From: Escherichia phage nepoznato
DNA length: 64,000 nucleotides
Strand: one strand, 5' to 3'
Sequence record: NC_052658.1
Shown here: positions 4,033-29,668 of the stretch, one piece after another
Numbering within the stretch: the first letter of the stretch is position 1
How the letters are laid out: each line of letters begins with the position of its first letter
Position numbers and translations under genes: made by a program
The notes under the pieces: model-generated
The model's input: the letters and a program-made list of their open reading frames with translations, nothing else
Told to the model about the DNA's origin: nothing
Databases searched by the model: none

Positions 4033-4499
4033 ATTTTGCAGGATATGAACCTGTAGATCTTATTAATGGTGAGGGAGTTAGGTGCTCCCTCTGGGTTAGT
4101 GGTTGTAGCCACGGTTGTCGTGGCTGTTTTAACCAGAAAGCCTGGTCTTATTCTTACGGGGAACCGTTTACTCACGAAAATGTAGAGCAAGTTTTAAAAG
4201 ATTTGTCAAGACCGTTTGTAAAAGGTTTAACAATTTTAGGAGGAGAACCATTAGATCCGCAGAATATTTACAATGTTAAAAGCCTTATAGAAAAGGTTAG
4301 AGACGTTTATGGGTCAAGCAAAGATATAATGGTGTATACAGGATATACTTTTGAGGAAGTGCCTTTATATATTAAAAATCTTGTTGACATTATTGTAGAC
4401 GGAAAGTATGAAATAAACAATCCAACTACAAAACCTTTCAGAGGGTCAGATAATCAAAGATTATGGACCAAAACGGCAAGTGGTTGGCAATCAGATTAA
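4029..4499 (+). CDS. nrdG: Anaerobic RNR activating protein NrdG (radical SAM)
   Basis: Cysteine cluster CSLWVSGCSHGCRGCFN and LTILGGEPL; TTG start overlapping the nrdD stop; AGGGAG SD upstream. Confidence 0.8.
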   Translation: MNFAGYEPVDLINGEGVRCSLWVSGCSHGCRGCFNQKAWSYSYGEPFTHENVEQVLKDLSRPFVKGLTILGGEPLDPQNIYNVKSLIEKVRDVYGSSKDIMVYTGYTFEEVPLYIKNLVDIIVDGKYEINNPTTKPFRGSDNQRLWTKTASGWQSD

Positions 4500-4512
4500 C
4501 TTAGGAGGTTTC

Positions 4513-4704
4513 ATGGTTACATATTTTGCTGTAGGAGATAGAGTAGGGACGGCAGGAGAACTGTTGAAGAACAGTGATCGGGACGTTAAGGAGATTCTTG
4601 CAACCCTTGTGGATATTTTACAAAGAAAAGAGTTGCTTTCTGATCGAGATGTTGCTAAATTACTTGATATCGGAGGAGATGAACTTCAAAGACTTCCATT
4701 TTAA
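4513..4704 (+). CDS. Hypothetical small protein
   Basis: ATG at 4513 preceded by AGGAGG (4503-4508); 63 aa; no motif. Confidence 0.4.
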   Translation: MVTYFAVGDRVGTAGELLKNSDRDVKEILATLVDILQRKELLSDRDVAKLLDIGGDELQRLPF

Positions 4705-4719
4705 GTGAGGAGATAAGTA

Positions 4720-19966: not shown

Positions 19967-21745
19967 GTGTCGCACATTATAACTAAATATGGATTTGATG
20001 TTGATCTTAGCAAGGAAGGACATACAGGTTGTCCGCGCTGCATGAAAAATGGCAAGGATCGCTCTCGTAATAACCTGATGGTTTACGGATTAGATTCTAA
20101 TGGAGAGCATAAAGGTGCTAAGTGCTTTGCGTGTGAATACACTATTCCTAGCGTAGAATGGTTACGAGAAAATGGTGAAGTTTTAGAAGAAGAGGAGGAG
20201 ATTGTGGGTTCGGAATTTAATAAACAGATTCATCGTAAAATTGTTCAAGAAACATCAACCAACCCACGTGGTTATCGAGGCATTAAAGAAAAAGTTTCAT
20301 CTTTCTATGGTGTTCGTTATGAATACCGTCAGGAAGGGGATCAGATGGTAGTAGAAAGTTGTTTATATCCAACTACCATCGGTAAAGAATTGGTTGGTTT
20401 TAAGCGTCGTATTCATCCTAAAGATTTCAGTAAACCTATTGGTCAAGTAGGTAAAGATGTAGATCTTTTTGGACAAATTCGTTTTGCAGACCGTTCTCAT
20501 ACTGTTGTAATTACAGGTGGTGAACACGATGCTCTGGCAGCTTATCAAATGCTATCTGAAAACTTGGACAGTAAATATGAGCTTCCAGCCGTAGTAAGTG
20601 GCACAACTGGTGAAACCAGTATGTATAAACAAGTTCAGGCACAATATCCTTTCTTTGAAAAATTTAAGAAGATTATTGTTTGCATGGATAACGACAAAGC
20701 AGGTAACGAGGCATTTGAAAATATTGTTAAGGTGCTGCCTCGTAACAAAGTCTACCGTATGCAGATGGATCTTAAGGATGCCAATCAGTATCTGGAAGAA
20801 GGTCGTGCAAAAGATTTCGTAAAAGCTTTTTGGAGTGCTCGTCTATACACCCCAGCAGGTGTTTATGCTTCTAATGTCTTGTATGAAGCTGCATTGGAAT
20901 GCTTGGAATCCAAGATGATTACCTTGCCTCCTTTTATGCGTGTTGCTGCAAATATGTTGGGTGGTGGTTTAGTAGAGGAAGAGATTACAGTCATCCTGGC
21001 AAAGACCAGTATCGGTAAAACTTTGATGGTGAACGAGATCACCAAACATATTATTGTTGCACACCCAGAACATACCCTAGGTATTCTGTCCTTGGAAGCA
21101 ACTTATAAAAAGTATTCTCGTAACCTGTTATCCTCTTTCCTACACATTCCTCTACACAGGAAAACACCAGAAGAGAAATTTCAAATCTTGGAAGAGAATA
21201 AAGAAAAAATCCTAGATTTTTACGAAAGAGAAGATGGATCACCACGTTTTTATGTGTGTGATGATCGTGGAGCAGATGTGGAGTCTATCAAAGAAAAAGT
21301 TTTGGAGATGATCATCTATTTTGGAGTAACAATTCTTGTTATCGACCCTTATTCTGATTTGCTTTCTGGTATGGATGTTCAAGCCCAGGAAGAGTTAGCA
21401 ACATGGTTGAAGCGAATCATGAAAGAGTATGCTATAACTATTATCGTCATCTCACACGTTAAGAAGTCAGCTAACGGTGGCAATGAGCACTTAACAGAGG
21501 ACGATGCAATGGGTAGTAGTTTCTTGGCTAAAGGTGCTGGTATTACCTTGGCTTTGGAACGAGATAAGGCTGCTGAAGATCCTGTAGAACGTAATACAAC
21601 TCATTGCTTTATCCTAAAAAACCGTGAGTTCTCGGAGACTGGTCCAGCAGGGCAGTTTTACTATGACATTAGAACTGCAACTCTTCACGACAAAGAGCAG
21701 TATTTTAACAACCCTGCTAACTTACCTACGGATAGCAACTACTAA
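19967..21745 (+). CDS. Bifunctional DNA primase/helicase (T7 gp4-like)
   Basis: N-terminal zinc ribbon (CPRCMK...CFACEY), TOPRIM-like VITGGEHDALAAYQM / CMDNDKAGNEA, helicase Walker A AKTSIGKT and Walker B VIDPYSDL; GTG start with AGGAG SD. Confidence 0.8.
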   Translation: MSHIITKYGFDVDLSKEGHTGCPRCMKNGKDRSRNNLMVYGLDSNGEHKGAKCFACEYTIPSVEWLRENGEVLEEEEEIVGSEFNKQIHRKIVQETSTNPRGYRGIKEKVSSFYGVRYEYRQEGDQMVVESCLYPTTIGKELVGFKRRIHPKDFSKPIGQVGKDVDLFGQIRFADRSHTVVITGGEHDALAAYQMLSENLDSKYELPAVVSGTTGETSMYKQVQAQYPFFEKFKKIIVCMDNDKAGNEAFENIVKVLPRNKVYRMQMDLKDANQYLEEGRAKDFVKAFWSARLYTPAGVYASNVLYEAALECLESKMITLPPFMRVAANMLGGGLVEEEITVILAKTSIGKTLMVNEITKHIIVAHPEHTLGILSLEATYKKYSRNLLSSFLHIPLHRKTPEEKFQILEENKEKILDFYEREDGSPRFYVCDDRGADVESIKEKVLEMIIYFGVTILVIDPYSDLLSGMDVQAQEELATWLKRIMKEYAITIIVISHVKKSANGGNEHLTEDDAMGSSFLAKGAGITLALERDKAAEDPVERNTTHCFILKNREFSETGPAGQFYYDIRTATLHDKEQYFNNPANLPTDSNY

Positions 21746-22278: not shown

Positions 22279-23073
22279 TTGAGCAAGTTGAACACACTTG
22301 ATCAATATTACACTAACCCCGCTTATGCGGGGTTCTTATGTGATAAGATCAAAGAAATTTTTGGAGAGGAAGCTAACTACGTAGAACCATCTGCGGGAGA
22401 AGGGGCTTTCTCTTCTTGTTTTAAAAACATAACTTCTTTTGATATTGACCCTAAGTTTGAAGATTGTATTGAGGCAGATTTTTTAGCTCAATCTGTTGAG
22501 TCTGTTGGCAGTGTAACTGCTTTTGTCGGTAATCCTCCGTTTGGAAAAAATGCTAGTCTTGCCATTAAGTTCTTTAACCATTGTGCTGAAATGTTGGATA
22601 ACGAAGGTGGTATTTGTTTTATCTTGCCTCGCACATTTCAAAAAATCTTTTTTGCACACAAACTAAATCCCCACATGCATCTTCTTTACGAAGAAGAATG
22701 TCCAAAAGGATCTTTTATTCTTCATGGAGAACCTTGGGATGTTCCTTGTGTATTCCAGATATGGATTAAACGCAACGAGAAGCGTTCTCCCGTTGTTTTA
22801 GGAGAAAATCGACTATTCGTATTAGGCAACAGTAAAGACTACGACATAGCCGTTAGGAGAGCGGGAGCAAGTGCAGGTAAAGTGTTATCAGAAGAGGATT
22901 CTTTATCTGAAGCATCTACCTATTTTTTAAAAGCCTTGACTTCTGATCTTAAAACGCGTATCATTGAGGCTTACCCGTTACTTAAAGCTGAAGCTAGTAA
23001 AACTGCGGGAGTAAGAAGTTTAAGTTTAAAAGAACTTCAGTGGGTTCTGGAGAACATTAGAAAGGAGGAATAG
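22279..23073 (+). CDS. N6-adenine DNA methyltransferase (NPPF motif)
   Basis: Motif I-like EPSAGEGAF and motif IV GNPPFG; TTG start with AAGGAGG SD. Confidence 0.6.
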   Translation: MSKLNTLDQYYTNPAYAGFLCDKIKEIFGEEANYVEPSAGEGAFSSCFKNITSFDIDPKFEDCIEADFLAQSVESVGSVTAFVGNPPFGKNASLAIKFFNHCAEMLDNEGGICFILPRTFQKIFFAHKLNPHMHLLYEEECPKGSFILHGEPWDVPCVFQIWIKRNEKRSPVVLGENRLFVLGNSKDYDIAVRRAGASAGKVLSEEDSLSEASTYFLKALTSDLKTRIIEAYPLLKAEASKTAGVRSLSLKELQWVLENIRKEE

Positions 23074-26000
23074 TGAGTAAGTTTACATGGGATATTGAAG
23101 CAAACGGATTGTTGAATAATGATACTATTGATTATTTAGCTAGTCCTTATCGTCTCAAAGACACATTTCAAATGCACTGTATTGTCTTAGAGAACCATGA
23201 AACAGGAGAAATAGTAGCTTTCCACGATGGCCCTAAATACATTTTTGATGGTCGTCCTTATGAAGAGTCAGATGATAAATATACATATGTTCTTAAAGAA
23301 TATGTGGCGCAAGATTACACACATTTTCAACTAAAAGATTTCCCAGATTTTATTAATCATGAAGGTTATTTTAAAGACAAGCCTGAATATTTGGTTGAAA
23401 TGGCTGTGGCACACAACGGTATCAACTATGACTGGTTGGCTACAAAACTGTTTTATGGATTAGATTACAGTGTTAAATATAACACGTGGGGTAAAAGCAA
23501 GGTAAAACTTATTGACTCCTTAATTTTGAGTAAAGTGTTAAACCCAGATCGAAAGATTGAGGGCAAATCAGGACATAGTTTGGCAGCACTTTCTCGAAAG
23601 GCAGGCGGGGATGTAAAAATAGATTTCCGTAAAGAGATTCCAGAAGAAGATCGATTTAAGACTTTTGCTGCGGATATGCTTTATTACTGTATCTATGATA
23701 ACAAAGCCAACACAAGTGTATATAATTACCTCATGGAAGAATGGGGTGATTATGATAAATGGGAAGGTCCATTTGAACTTGAACAACGTGTAGCAGACAT
23801 TATCACGCGCCAGGAACACCGTGGGTTTGCTTTTAACATGAAGCAAGCAGAAGAGAACCTTGCTTTTTTGGATGCAGAAATGGAACGTCTTCGTTTACTC
23901 GTTGAGCCTATTTTGCCACCTAAACCAGCAACAAAAGGTTATCTTAAAGCTTTTATTCCGCCTAAATTGCAAATTAAAAAGAACCTCGAACCAACTAACC
24001 ATATGATCAATTTTGCTAAAAAACATGATGGTCATTTGGAAGAGAGGGATGGCGATTGGTGGTTAGTTATGTTGGGGAAAGAGTGGAAACTGCCAGTTGC
24101 AGCAGATGAGCCTTTGTGTGATCCTAATATCCCTGCAACATTGAACGATACAACCCATATTAAAAACTGGCTTGTAGGATTAGGTTGGGTACCGTCTGAA
24201 TATAAAGATAAAGACTTGACTCTTAAATCTGGCACCAAGATTAAAAAGAGTGAGGAAGAACTTCAGAAAGGTATTCGAGCTTACATTGAGCAAACTCTAT
24301 CTTCTAATTTTTGTCAGGATCGTTGTGATCATCTGGAGTGCACACCGGAAACCTTGGAAAGGAAGATTCAAGAGCGTATAGCAAAAGGTAAAGGTCGCGG
24401 TCTTAAAGTATTGACTAACCCATGTTTTACCAAAGGTCAGGAAAAAGAAATTTGTCCTAACCTGCAAGCTTTGGGTGAGAAATTTCCTTATGCTACACAG
24501 ATTGTAGAATACTTAACGTATAAACACCGTAGGAACTCTATTTTAGGTGGTGGTGCCGATTGGGAAGAAGACGAAGAAGATCAAGAATACAACAAAGGTT
24601 TCTTGGCAGCAGTTCGTGCAGATGGACGTATACCTACGCCAGCGGCTACATGCGATGCAGCAACCTCTCGTATGAAGCATAGGTCTGTAGCCAATATTCC
24701 TCGTGTTACCTCTTTGTTTGGATGGCAGATGCGTAACCTGTTTGGTGTAGAGGTTCCTAAATACTTCCAGATTGGTTATGACTTTGATTCATTAGAGGCG
24801 AAGATTGAGTCGCATTATACGTGGAGATATGATAATCCTGATCATGCTTACTGTAATGCACTTCTGTTAGAAAAACCAAACGATGTGCATACTATGATGG
24901 CAAAACATATTACTGATATTATTGGACGTAAGTTTGAACGTGGTCCTGCTAAGAGCGTTAAATACGGTTGTGTACCTGTAGATAATACGGAAGTGTTAAC
25001 AAGAACGGGTTGGAAGAAACGTAAAGATCTTTTTGTAGGGGATGAAGTTTTATCTTATAATACTCACACCGCTCTTTACGAATATACCCCTATTCTTAAG
25101 CTGTGGGACTATAACGATGCAGAAGTTGTCTCTCTCGGTAACAAGTGGTTCAAAGTAGAAGTTACTAACGATCATATGTGGATTAACGCACAGAGAAAAA
25201 CTATGCGATCAGATGGTAACAATGTTAAGTATATGCAAGTGGAGCGTAGATCTACAGAGGATTTAAACTCGGAGTCAAACATAATTGCAGCAGGGCGATC
25301 TGGTGTGGTGTCTACTCTAACAGTGGAAGAAGGTCGTTTCTTAGGCTGGCTTCTTTCGGATGGCTACTATAAGTGGTCTGGCAAAGCCAGAAATAAAGTA
25401 ATGGGTATTACAGTCACGGTAGATCAAGATGAGAAAAAATTCTTAGAAGAAGCACGTGAGGCTGTGGGAGATATCTTCACATTTGACGAGTATGTATCTG
25501 GAACGATGCATTCATTACGTCCTAATAAGAGTCAGTTTAGGGAATTTTTGACTAAATGTGGCGTTGAAGTGGGTCAAAATAAGCACGAAGTGGACTGGTC
25601 TACATTAATTGCTAATCAAGGTCAAGCTGTGTTGGAAGCATTCTTAGAGGCATTCTGGATGGCAGATGGTCATAAGCGTCCAAACGGCAGTCTTGTTATC
25701 CGTCAAAAGAAAGGTAAGATTAGCGACGCTGTTTCTTTGGCTATCAATATGACAGGTAATATTGCGTATGGTTCTGTTCAAAAAGATGGCATGTTAACGT
25801 TGGCAATCAATAACGGACAAACTATTTCAGGACAGAGGTTGACAAAAGCTTTTTCACGAGTAACAGATGTATTCTGTATCTCAACCAAGAATGAATCTTT
25901 TGTTATGCGTCAGAATGGTTTTATCACGTTGACAGGTAACTGCACGTACGGCGCTCAAGCAGACAAGGTTGCTAAAACAATTGGTAGCGATAAATACACA

Positions 26001-26642
26001 GGGCAACTGGTGTTCGATGCTTTCTGGGAAGCTGCATTCCCACTGGCGCGTCTTAAAGAACGTTTAAACGATTTCTGGGTTAAGACTGGTAAACAGTATG
26101 TTTTGGGTATTGACGGTCGTAAGGTTCCTACTCGTTCTGCTCACGCGATTCTTAACTCTCTGTTCCAAAGTGGTGGGGTTATCTGTGCTAAACGTGCAAT
26201 GGTTATTTATGACGACATGATCGAAGAAGAAGGGCTAAGTGTTGACTTCTTTAAAGATGACTGGAAGAATAAAGACTTCGTGCAACAAATGATTGCATAT
26301 CACGATGAAGCCCAGCTTGAAGTTTCTCGTAGCCTTGTAGAATTTAAATGGTTTTCACCTGAATCATTAGGTTGGAAGAAAGTAGACGATCCTGAAGAAC
26401 AAAAGAAAATTGATAAAGAATGCCTTGCTAAAGTTGAAGAATGGAAGCATAATAAGGAAAAAGAGACAGGGCAAATTTGGGCTAACATTCATGAATCTCC
26501 CAAAGGTGGATGGTTTACAGCCTATAGTCGGGCAGGTGAACTTGCTGCTTTAGCTGTTACTAAGGCTGGAGAATTTTACAATCTTAATGTTCAGCTTACT
26601 GCCGGATATGATGTGGGTAACTCCTGGGCGAGCTGCCATTAG
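23073..26642 (+). CDS. Family A DNA polymerase with 3'-5' exonuclease, interrupted by an in-frame intein
   Basis: Exo I WDIEANGL; Pol A motif A IGYDFDSLEAKI; motif B RGPAKSVKYG|[intein]|CTYGAQADKVAKTIG; motif C YHDEAQLEV; GTG start with AAAGGAGG SD. Confidence 0.8.
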   Translation: MSKFTWDIEANGLLNNDTIDYLASPYRLKDTFQMHCIVLENHETGEIVAFHDGPKYIFDGRPYEESDDKYTYVLKEYVAQDYTHFQLKDFPDFINHEGYFKDKPEYLVEMAVAHNGINYDWLATKLFYGLDYSVKYNTWGKSKVKLIDSLILSKVLNPDRKIEGKSGHSLAALSRKAGGDVKIDFRKEIPEEDRFKTFAADMLYYCIYDNKANTSVYNYLMEEWGDYDKWEGPFELEQRVADIITRQEHRGFAFNMKQAEENLAFLDAEMERLRLLVEPILPPKPATKGYLKAFIPPKLQIKKNLEPTNHMINFAKKHDGHLEERDGDWWLVMLGKEWKLPVAADEPLCDPNIPATLNDTTHIKNWLVGLGWVPSEYKDKDLTLKSGTKIKKSEEELQKGIRAYIEQTLSSNFCQDRCDHLECTPETLERKIQERIAKGKGRGLKVLTNPCFTKGQEKEICPNLQALGEKFPYATQIVEYLTYKHRRNSILGGGADWEEDEEDQEYNKGFLAAVRADGRIPTPAATCDAATSRMKHRSVANIPRVTSLFGWQMRNLFGVEVPKYFQIGYDFDSLEAKIESHYTWRYDNPDHAYCNALLLEKPNDVHTMMAKHITDIIGRKFERGPAKSVKYGCVPVDNTEVLTRTGWKKRKDLFVGDEVLSYNTHTALYEYTPILKLWDYNDAEVVSLGNKWFKVEVTNDHMWINAQRKTMRSDGNNVKYMQVERRSTEDLNSESNIIAAGRSGVVSTLTVEEGRFLGWLLSDGYYKWSGKARNKVMGITVTVDQDEKKFLEEAREAVGDIFTFDEYVSGTMHSLRPNKSQFREFLTKCGVEVGQNKHEVDWSTLIANQGQAVLEAFLEAFWMADGHKRPNGSLVIRQKKGKISDAVSLAINMTGNIAYGSVQKDGMLTLAINNGQTISGQRLTKAFSRVTDVFCISTKNESFVMRQNGFITLTGNCTYGAQADKVAKTIGSDKYTGQLVFDAFWEAAFPLARLKERLNDFWVKTGKQYVLGIDGRKVPTRSAHAILNSLFQSGGVICAKRAMVIYDDMIEEEGLSVDFFKDDWKNKDFVQQMIAYHDEAQLEVSRSLVEFKWFSPESLGWKKVDDPEEQKKIDKECLAKVEEWKHNKEKETGQIWANIHESPKGGWFTAYSRAGELAALAVTKAGEFYNLNVQLTAGYDVGNSWASCH
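24969..25940 (+). mobile_element. Intein (324 aa) with a LAGLIDADG-type homing endonuclease domain, inserted in Pol A motif B
   Basis: Begins with Cys (CVPVDNTEVLTRTG), block B TNDHMW, LAGLIDADG-like LGWLLSDGYY and EAFWMADGHK, ends ...FITLTGN followed by extein Cys; removal rejoins KYG + CTYGA into a canonical motif B. Confidence 0.7.
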
Positions 26643-27871: not shown

Positions 27872-27902
27872 TTGACAATATTAAACATTTTATGATAGGA
27901 TA
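27872..27902 (+). promoter_or_regulatory. Sigma70-like promoter
   Basis: TTGACA (27872-27877) with a downstream TAGGAT/ATAGGA -10-like element; precedes ATG 27910. Confidence 0.35.
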
Positions 27903-27909
27903 GCATTCA

Positions 27910-28302
27910 ATGACTGAACGTTCTAAGATAGCTGTTGAAACTGTTTATGGAAACTACACCAGTTTGACACTAGTTGAGAAAAATGTTGTAGGTCTTGACA
28001 ACTCTTTTTATTTTCAAATTTTGGTTATTCAAGGTGGAAACAAGAAGCTAACTGCTCGTGTCGAAACATCTGAAATAATTGAAACCACTGTTACAAACAA
28101 AGAATTCATTTCACTGCAAGATACAATCCGAAACGTTATAGACGAAGAAGGCAAAGCTGCCACAATTAAACTCGGAGGTTTCCCAGTGCAAATAGTTCAT
28201 TTTCCTAATGGTGAAATTGGAGTTGGAATAGGTAAAGGTAAATACCTGTTAGAGCAAGATGATATGGAAAGACTCCGCTCTTTCTGTGCAAAATTAATGT
28301 AA
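27910..28302 (+). CDS. Hypothetical protein
   Basis: 130 aa; no motif. Confidence 0.45.
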   Translation: MTERSKIAVETVYGNYTSLTLVEKNVVGLDNSFYFQILVIQGGNKKLTARVETSEIIETTVTNKEFISLQDTIRNVIDEEGKAATIKLGGFPVQIVHFPNGEIGVGIGKGKYLLEQDDMERLRSFCAKLM

Positions 28303-28318
28303 TATAGAGGAGATAATA

Positions 28319-29206
28319 ATGTCCATAATTAATACTGAAACTGATCGTAAAGGCAAAACCGTAACTTATGCAACTGGTATCGTAGACTACGTTAAACTGG
28401 ATAAATTCGCTGAACCTAAAACTTTTCATTGGGAAGGAAAAACGATTGTTTCAACTCACCGAGCTTCTCTTGTTCTGAAAGAGAAAGGTGCTAAACCAGA
28501 GGAGAAAGGTGTTTGGATTTCTCTTGGTGATATTGAACTGAAAGAAGGTTATGAAAACCTGCAAGTTAAAGAAGGTGATAACTGGATCACTATTGAAAAA
28601 GGTGTAGAAGTAAGTATTGATATTGATCGCGTTGACAATAAAGGCGGTAAAACTTACTACAATACTAAAAAATCTCGTATTACAGTATTGTCTACCGATG
28701 GTGTTCAGAAGTCTAACAAATCTTCTGGCAATAAGGGTTCCAACGATGCTGCTCCTAAACAGTCCTATAAAAAACGTGATACTGTAGGTCTGGAAACTGG
28801 TCACGCAGTAAATGGTGCGCTGGAACTGATTCGTAATGGTGTTAAAGGCGATGCTTTTGATATCGCTGGGGTTGTTCAATCTGCGACTGTCACGTTGAAA
28901 TCGGAAATTGCTGAATCTCGTGGCGTTGATATTAATGATTATGATCTTGGGGCAGCTGTTGGTCACGCTATTCTCAATGCTTGTAAAGACCATACCATTA
29001 AGACTGTCTCTGTAGAAGATCTGATTGATTCTGCTCGTAAAGTTCTGGCTCTGTCTGATAAAGTTGCTGCTGCCATTCGTGGTTCCGCAGAACAACCTAA
29101 GAAAGAAGAGAAGAAAGAAGTTAAAAAGCCTGAACCACAACCAGAACCAACTCCAAGCAATCAAGAAGAACCTCCAATGGACTTCGATGATAATATTCCT
29201 TTTTGA
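28319..29206 (+). CDS. ssb: Single-stranded DNA-binding protein with an E. coli-type acidic C-terminal tip
   Basis: C-terminus ...NQEEPPMDFDDNIPF is nearly identical to the E. coli SSB tip ...EPPMDFDDDIPF; flexible G/S/K linker before the tail; host-optimised codon usage. Confidence 0.65.
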   Translation: MSIINTETDRKGKTVTYATGIVDYVKLDKFAEPKTFHWEGKTIVSTHRASLVLKEKGAKPEEKGVWISLGDIELKEGYENLQVKEGDNWITIEKGVEVSIDIDRVDNKGGKTYYNTKKSRITVLSTDGVQKSNKSSGNKGSNDAAPKQSYKKRDTVGLETGHAVNGALELIRNGVKGDAFDIAGVVQSATVTLKSEIAESRGVDINDYDLGAAVGHAILNACKDHTIKTVSVEDLIDSARKVLALSDKVAAAIRGSAEQPKKEEKKEVKKPEPQPEPTPSNQEEPPMDFDDNIPF

Positions 29207-29634
29207 TCAGTAAGTTATGCTCGTGTTGTGGGGCTGAAAAGCCCCTCAACATGTTCCAAGTAAGGAAGGCTTCTAAAGATGGCTATACGGCATCCTGTAA
29301 AGCTTGCTTAAAAGAACGTGACCGTATACGAGATCAAGACCCTAATCGTAAAGCAGCAAAAGAAAAGTATGTAAAGGGAAAAGGAAAGGATAAAGCAGAC
29401 GCGGCTAAAAAACGTTGGCAAGAAAAGAATCCCAAGAAGCGTAGTGTTCACGTTTTAGTTGGCAACGCACTCCGAGATGGAAAGTTAGTAAAACAACCTT
29501 GCCAAGTGTGTGGGTCTGTTGATGTTCATGCTCATCATTGTGATTATGATAAACCGTTAGATGTTCTATGGCTGTGTCCTCTGCACCATGAAGCTTGGCA
29601 TCAAGAACATGGGGAAGGGTTGAACGCTGAATAA
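29203..29634 (+). CDS. HNH endonuclease-like protein (free-standing)
   Basis: C-terminal HAHHCDYDKPLDVLWLCPLHHEAWH (HNH zinc-finger type); start uncertain (TTG 29203 or ATG 29251); a GGGGC/GCCCC hairpin lies at 29228-29243. Confidence 0.55.
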   Translation: MISKLCSCCGAEKPLNMFQVRKASKDGYTASCKACLKERDRIRDQDPNRKAAKEKYVKGKGKDKADAAKKRWQEKNPKKRSVHVLVGNALRDGKLVKQPCQVCGSVDVHAHHCDYDKPLDVLWLCPLHHEAWHQEHGEGLNAE

Positions 29635-29636
29635 AA

Positions 29637-29668
29637 GAAAGGAGCCAAATGGCTCCTTTTCTTATTTA
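29637..29668. terminator. Bidirectional terminator between the convergent early and structural blocks
   Basis: 10-bp stem GAAAGGAGCC/GGCTCCTTT(T) with loop AAAT, T-runs on both strands; lies where the plus HNH gene and the minus fibre gene converge. Confidence 0.6.

Follow-up and report, generated by a model that had tools for sequence, protein, structure and literature searches.

Phage T7 encodes an SSB, gp2.5, in which an OB fold is combined with an acidic, Phe-ended C-terminal tail. The acidic Phe-ended tails of both gp2.5 and gp4 bind T7 polymerase, and the gp2.5 tail serves the helicase as well. A layout of OB fold, disordered linker, and acidic tip ending in Pro-Phe is common to E. coli SSB (PF00436) and to the canonical SSBs of phages and plasmids. 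At least 17 E. coli proteins dock at the nine-residue tip of E. coli SSB (PMC10018359, PMC7145534), to whose binding the carboxylate of the terminal Phe contributes, as modelled for DnaG (PMC5872125). HK620 SSB requires its six C-terminal residues to engage Sak4, a phage annealase, on ssDNA (PMC5928155). Bas52_0087 of Escherichia phage RudolfGeigy (Vequintavirus) is needed to trigger DRT10, a reverse-transcriptase defence that produces ssDNA and also restricts Stephanstirmvirinae (preprint 10.64898/2026.04.29.721553). The same preprint described Bas52_0087 as an SSB-like protein that has two OB folds and whose tip reads FDDDIPF, and showed that the protein is non-toxic and insufficient to trigger DRT10 when expressed alone, that the dosage of host exonuclease I (SbcB) modulates DRT10 defence, and that the substitutions D252V and Y351C in Bas52_0087 allow escape (10.64898/2026.04.29.721553).

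The protein analysed in the present study joins this recently described kind, of which Bas52_0087 is already published and is, by sequence comparison, its closest characterised relative. Its gene lies in a 64,000-nt stretch of DNA from Escherichia phage nepoznato (NC_052658.1), referred to here as the window, and an exact-sequence look-up identified the 295-aa product as YP_009986090.1 (nepoznato_236, Escherichia phage nepoznato). BLASTP alignment with Bas52_0087 gave 35% identity over the OB domain (E 1e-12) and 32% over the helical domain and tail (E 8e-15). Both genes (Bas52_0087 at L002:15982-17208) are positioned after those of a primase-helicase and a polymerase, and both products end in an acidic IPF tip. 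The proteins differ in length (295 aa in the window vs. 408 aa), in the number of OB folds, as the window protein is without the inserted second beta domain and has one rather than two, and in the tip, which reads DDN in the window protein and DDD in Bas52_0087. Of the two escape positions, D252 aligns with D154 of the window protein, a near-invariant residue of the family within the four-helix domain, and Y351 corresponds to A250, a residue of the last helix. Sequence similarity thus predicts that phAPEC8-like phages would likewise be sensed by DRT10 and could escape through the helical domain.

Genomic context and domain architecture

The SSB-like gene has 97-98% DNA identity to 63 Phapecoctavirus genomes, i.e., phAPEC8- and ESCO5-like myoviruses of ~150 kb within the Stephanstirmvirinae, and the source of the window is a Phapecoctavirus. 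The original prediction had taken the tip as the mark of an enterobacterial host. This did not hold, as Vibrio phage SSBs also carry PPMDFDDDIPF; E. coli is identified as the host by the matching phage records rather than by the tip. Near-identical Phapecoctavirus and rV5-like genomes have been deposited as Campylobacter, Pseudomonas, Acinetobacter, and Klebsiella phages, and these odd host names reflect either unreliable labels or a host range beyond E. coli. Related phage records label the gene "SSB" in some cases and "hypothetical" in most, and its product was matched over its full length by PHROG 4477 (function unknown; E 4.5e-95).

In the window and in REC alike, the replication module is closed by this gene, which follows those of the primase-helicase and family A polymerase (Table 1), and the order of polymerase followed by SSB-like gene is kept in the distant relatives Bas52, L003, L006, and L008. 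The gene order around the 130-aa ORF is likewise the same in L003 and L006. The window together with bases 1-96,000 of the sister genome SF1-1 spans the whole genome and was used as a genome equivalent. No second SSB was found in this genome equivalent by phmmer or in the PHROG- and structure-based annotation of the SF1-1 record. Acidic xP[FW] ends occur only twice in it, on the SSB-like protein and on the nucleotidyltransferase-like protein encoded two genes upstream, the latter ending in ...EEDDIPW (codons 27847-27861), a second SSB-tip-like C-terminus. DDIPW is kept in nucleotidyltransferase homologs down to 59% identity, with a variable linker before it. A precomputed "Gad2" label (PF26128) on two of these homologs was not reproduced by our own Pfam scan and was set aside. 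Just one further [hydrophobic]-P-F C-terminus exists in the genome equivalent, on the product of a 74-aa ORF at 4480-4704 (PHROG 17780, unknown function), whose weakly acidic end reads ...GGDELQRLPF. As to the family A polymerase, it comprises 1189 aa in the window and L003 vs. 1110 aa in REC; matches to DNA polymerase PHROG families extend over residues 2-634 and ~925-1189, with ~300 central residues falling outside, and in Bas52 the polymerase annotation joins two pieces.

Table 1. Features of the replication module and of the SSB-like gene in the window.
Feature	Position	Strand	Remarks
Primase-helicase, Toprim + DnaB_C, T7 gp4-type	19967..21745	+	replication module
Methyltransferase gene			between primase-helicase and family A polymerase
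Family A DNA polymerase	23073..26642	+	same replication module
Several small ORFs			between family A polymerase and nucleotidyltransferase-like gene
Nucleotidyltransferase-like gene, 197 aa	27271..27864	+	PHROG 10174 nucleotidyltransferase, E 1e-62
Promoter-like site	27872-27901		upstream of 130-aa ORF; score 10/12, TG motif
130-aa ORF, PHROG 16560 (unknown function)	27910..28302	+	between the two tip-bearing genes
Shine-Dalgarno GAGGAG	28307-28312	+	strong ribosome-binding site; 6 nt upstream of the 28319 ATG; read from sequence
SSB-like protein gene	28319..29206	+	ORF, ATG start, 295 aa, stop TGA
N-terminal beta domain, predicted OB fold	28319..28702	+	aa 1-128
Disordered basic linker	28703..28774	+	aa 129-152; pLDDT <50 at residues 131-148
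Four-helix domain	28775..29080	+	aa 153-254; pLDDT ~92; bacterial SSB is without such a domain
Lys/Glu/Pro-rich disordered linker	29081..29167	+	aa 255-283; pLDDT <50 at 261-285; highly variable
Tip EPPMDFDDNIPF, candidate SSB-Ct-type docking peptide, free C-terminal Phe	29168..29203	+	BLASTP to E. coli SSB; family-wide conservation
HNH endonuclease gene, free-standing	29203..29634	+	PHROG 2340 endonuclease, E 3e-40; abuts SSB-like stop codon
Bidirectional terminator-like hairpin	29637..29660	none	closes replication operon and convergent tail operon; conserved in REC, L003

The structure of the window protein was predicted with AlphaFold2 from an alignment of 46 relatives. In the model, residues 1-128 form a beta domain (pLDDT 75-89), four helices (156-172, 179-201, 208-223, and 232-253) lie within residues ~155-253, and the tip is undocked. 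An OB fold, which the original prediction presupposed, is indeed predicted for residues 1-128, at the level of the generic fold. Most structural neighbours among the matches to this domain are nucleic-acid-binding OB folds, and the family alignment showed that the domain has conserved aromatic and basic residues. Structural matches to the four-helix domain were generic helical only; a role in oligomerisation is possible. In relatives of ~375-410 aa, the alignment placed a second small beta domain at the position of the first linker (aa 129-152). Since about half of the PHROG 4477 family is of the short type, without this inserted domain, two OB folds are not a defining trait of the wider family.

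Comparisons with known SSBs were largely negative. A Pfam scan of the 295-aa protein gave no SSB match at E <= 1, and the match to NCBIfam PRK09010 was limited to aa 254-295 and scored 20.9 bits against a cut-off of 260; SSB PHROG and NCBIfam matches together were confined to residues 247-295. With the E. coli OB domain as query, phmmer matched nothing in the phage proteins, and an hhalign comparison of the family's N-terminal OB profile with the canonical SSB profile returned a probability of 0.1%, i.e., no remote homology was detected. A BFVD structure search matched only uncharacterised phage proteins. By sequence, then, the 295-aa protein falls outside the bacterial SSB family. It differs from canonical SSBs in its DNA-binding core, where neither sequence nor profile comparison shows homology, in its extra four-helix domain, and in a linker that is Lys/Glu/Pro-rich rather than Gly/Gln/Pro-rich; the database label "SSB" is driven by a tail-only match. 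Consequently, the claim that the gene encodes a phage SSB stands as far as the predicted OB fold, linker, and tip are concerned but not as far as SSB family models, which match the tail only, or the null profile comparison are concerned. The alignment proposed at the time was similarly divided, with a tail that aligns with E. coli SSB and a core without homology to canonical SSBs, and the earlier interpretation as a whole is partly supported.

Conservation of the C-terminal tip

The ORF translation ends in ...PSNQEEPPMDFDDNIPF and is followed directly by TGA. As originally claimed, the tip is a near-exact copy of that of E. coli SSB: 11 of the last 12 residues are identical, the sole change being Asp to Asn at position -3, and the BLASTP alignment between the two proteins covers the last 26 residues only (15/26 identical, E 2e-7). 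The same tail-only alignment was obtained with PDB chains 1eqq_A and 7f2n_A, both of the E. coli type, the chain ending in ...PSNEPPMDFDDDIPF. By our own arithmetic, an 11/12 match of this kind would arise by chance in any window ORF with a probability of <1e-10. DFDDNIPF stands at the extreme C-terminus with the stop codon directly after it, giving an acidic run, [ILV]-P-F, and a free carboxylate. Most Phapecoctavirus alleles have the exact host 12-mer, EPPMDFDDDIPF, and the DDN of the window is a rare variant.

Among close and medium relatives, [ILVC]-P-F was kept in all 91, with P294 and F295 invariant. Distant relatives were sought by searching 1.84 billion cluster representatives with residues 1-256 as query, i.e., with the tail left out. 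This query matched 127 proteins, so that the PHROG 4477 family comprises at least 127 diverged clusters. When 125 of these distant representatives were inspected, 96 ended in acidic [ILV]-P-[FW] and nine more had the tip before a short extension; despite the tail-less query, the tip was thus present in ~105/125 (~84%). Positions -5 to -3 of the distant tips are Asp in 65-73%, Ile, Leu, or Val occupies position -2, and Trp is the last residue in five, giving a position-specific pattern of D-D-D-[ILV]-P-[FW] for the family. The position taken by Asn in the window (-3) is Asp in 76 of the 91 relatives and in 80 of 110 family tips. The linker ahead of the tip varies freely among relatives. A conserved tip beside a freely varying linker is what purifying selection on a short docking motif should produce. 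No close relatives of the distant family members were found among isolated phages.

We also considered whether the tail had recently been captured from the host chromosome. This was rejected, as the DNA match to ssb genes is only 39-59 nt long at 81-87% identity. The ssb genes concerned are mostly plasmid-borne, and the match stops at the peptide.

Proposed function and alternatives

The reading frame, the tip and its conservation, the predicted architecture, the genomic position, and the homology to Bas52_0087 are direct observations, and from them we infer ssDNA binding, oligomerisation, and the partners of the window protein. We put at roughly 0.6 the probability that the phage uses it as its own ssDNA-binding protein, in the most economical reading the one for replication and recombination, with the tip as a docking handle; it would represent a non-canonical type that occurs in large myoviruses of the phAPEC8, phi92, and rV5 kinds. 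In this view, the OB fold at the N-terminus would contact ssDNA, self-association would fall to the four-helix domain, and the disordered Lys/Glu/Pro-rich linker would present the acidic, Ile-Pro-Phe-ended peptide, whose use for docking is suggested by its conservation. Because it is identical to the E. coli SSB tip at 11/12 positions (12/12 in the majority of sister phages), the peptide should be accepted by the pockets on host SSB-interacting proteins, e.g., exonuclease I. The phage protein could then recruit or compete for such proteins on phage ssDNA, and the same tip may also serve the phage's T7-like replisome. The tip is functional, with partners that belong to the host, the phage, or both. 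Should it dock host nucleases or helicases, the phage protein would compete with host SSB for them during infection. For a widespread family of large coliphages, therapy candidates included, these results point to a likely ssDNA-binding role for a protein mostly labelled "hypothetical".

Of the alternatives, the one that survives best is that the tip is mainly for phage partners (the PolA polymerase, the primase-helicase, and the nucleotidyltransferase-like protein), as in the case of the T7 gp2.5 tail, and that its identity to the host tip arose as phage SSB genes swapped a portable tail module, not through selection for binding to host proteins. We regard this as unlikely, if far from negligible, and it is compatible with the window protein being the phage's ssDNA-binding protein. 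The replisome, with its primase-helicase and family A polymerase, is T7-like, and the window protein resembles gp2.5 in being an OB-fold protein specific to phages, in its acidic tail with a terminal Phe, and in coming from a phage that also encodes a primase-helicase of the gp4 type and a family A polymerase. However, gp2.5 was absent from the top structural matches of the window protein, which differs from it in having a tail of the bacterial SSB type and a helical domain. Partners encoded by the phage are also suggested by the distribution of the tip, which occurs, followed or not by the cap described below, on canonical SSBs, other small OB-like proteins, the SSB-like family, and a 691-aa primase-helicase, by the conserved DDIPW that ends a second protein of the same operon, and by the viability of phages with capped alleles. 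The tail of HK620 SSB binds phage Sak4 and provides a further instance of a phage SSB with a partner-docking C-terminal tail, although HK620 SSB is itself a distantly related canonical SSB, ends in NDYPPF, and engages a phage annealase (PMC5928155). Against mainly phage partners, a tip that equals the host peptide at 12/12 positions, as most alleles have it, would be expected to bind host pockets anyway, and the homolog Bas52_0087 is genetically linked to host exonuclease I.

It is quite improbable that the copied tip is a decoy or hijacker that draws host SSB-interacting nucleases and helicases off host SSB or phage DNA, in a takeover or anti-defence function to which ssDNA coating is secondary or absent. 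Such a role would suit a near-exact host peptide, but it accords poorly with the conserved position of the gene in the core replication module, with an OB domain that retains aromatic and basic residues, with a genome equivalent that has no other SSB, and with Bas52_0087 alone being neither toxic nor enough to trigger DRT10. That the protein does not bind ssDNA at all, its barrel binding something else and its "SSB" label being a tail-match artefact, would agree with SSB PHROG and NCBIfam matches covering aa 247-295 only, with the hhalign probability of 0.1%, and with the "hypothetical" label in most records, but is very improbable in view of the mostly nucleic-acid-binding OB folds among its structural neighbours, the replication-module context with no other SSB found, and the sensing of its homolog by the ssDNA-based DRT10 system.

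Capped tips and neighbouring HNH genes

The less expected parts of this analysis are the portable tip, its cap, and an association with HNH genes. In many phage proteins, the terminal IPF is followed by a conserved extension of 14-17 residues consisting of A-P-[IV]-G-L-Q-Y and a hydrophobic tail (pattern A-P-[IV]-G-L-Q-Y-x6-9, often ending C-[MIF]), referred to here as the APIGLQY cap. It was observed at loci L003, L006, L008, L009, L010-L057, L060, and L061, and the window is without it. A search of viral contigs with the pattern P-F-A-P-[IVM]-G-L-Q-Y matched 48 genes, including 26 canonical E. coli-type SSBs, three members of the SSB-like family identified by phmmer and at least one more by eye (L024), and a 691-aa primase-helicase on three contigs; the others are truncated fragments and small proteins, some of them OB-like by eye. 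Host genera of the phages with capped proteins include Vibrio, Salmonella, Klebsiella, and Escherichia. Since third-codon positions of the cap-coding DNA vary, selection acts on the cap peptide. No paper with the APIGLQY motif was found in the literature searched, and the capped form of the tip is apparently undescribed.

The tip is capped by APIGLQYGRNFLHCF in Mt1B1_P17 and nieznany, which are viable sister phages. Such a cap should block any binding that needs the terminal carboxylate. Docking of the cap in cis on the folded domains was found to be unsupported, as the cap is predicted to be disordered (pLDDT ~41). We also rejected, for the general case, the cap as a by-product of an HNH cassette: 43 of the 48 capped genes have no adjacent HNH gene, and L009 is capped without one. 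Within Phapecoctavirus, the cap and a type-2 HNH travel together.

An HNH gene after the SSB-like gene is present in ~10 of 69 related records and absent in ~59, e.g., REC. In most Phapecoctavirus genomes, again including REC, the SSB-like gene ends ...GATGATGATATTCCGTTCTGA and no HNH gene follows. In the window, AV125, and phiWec188, the HNH gene starts at the SSB-like stop codon, and ATTCCTTTTTGA is common to all three. The tips of these HNH-linked alleles read DDN (window) or DED (AV125 and phiWec188) instead of DDD, and the alleles have common synonymous changes in their last two codons. Mt1B1_P17, nieznany, and L003 combine the capped tip with a related HNH gene, and in distant phages the same HNH family occurs directly downstream of tip-bearing genes with three different cores. 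HNH-related loci were noted at L001, L003, L006, L008, and L058-L061.

We hypothesise that the HNH protein is a homing endonuclease targeting a site within or beside the conserved tip-coding DNA, and that the flanking changes were co-converted or selected for cleavage immunity. Because of such homing at the tip DNA, the copy of the host peptide in the window would be near-exact rather than exact as a side effect of a selfish element. More broadly, it is possible, if doubtful, that the SSB tip is a docking module carried by otherwise unrelated phage replication proteins (here the SSB-like protein and, as DDIPW, the nucleotidyltransferase-like protein; in relatives, a primase-helicase), that the cap switches or masks the choice of partner, and that HNH homing endonucleases repeatedly settle beside the module and reshape it, which would explain the change of Asp to Asn. 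The natural alleles, with exact tip, DDN or DED tip, and capped tip, form a test series for competition of the phage protein with host SSB. At L008, the HNH endonuclease encoded downstream of a distant family member (4174-4716) itself ends ...VIPEIKIPF, i.e., in IPF without an acidic run.
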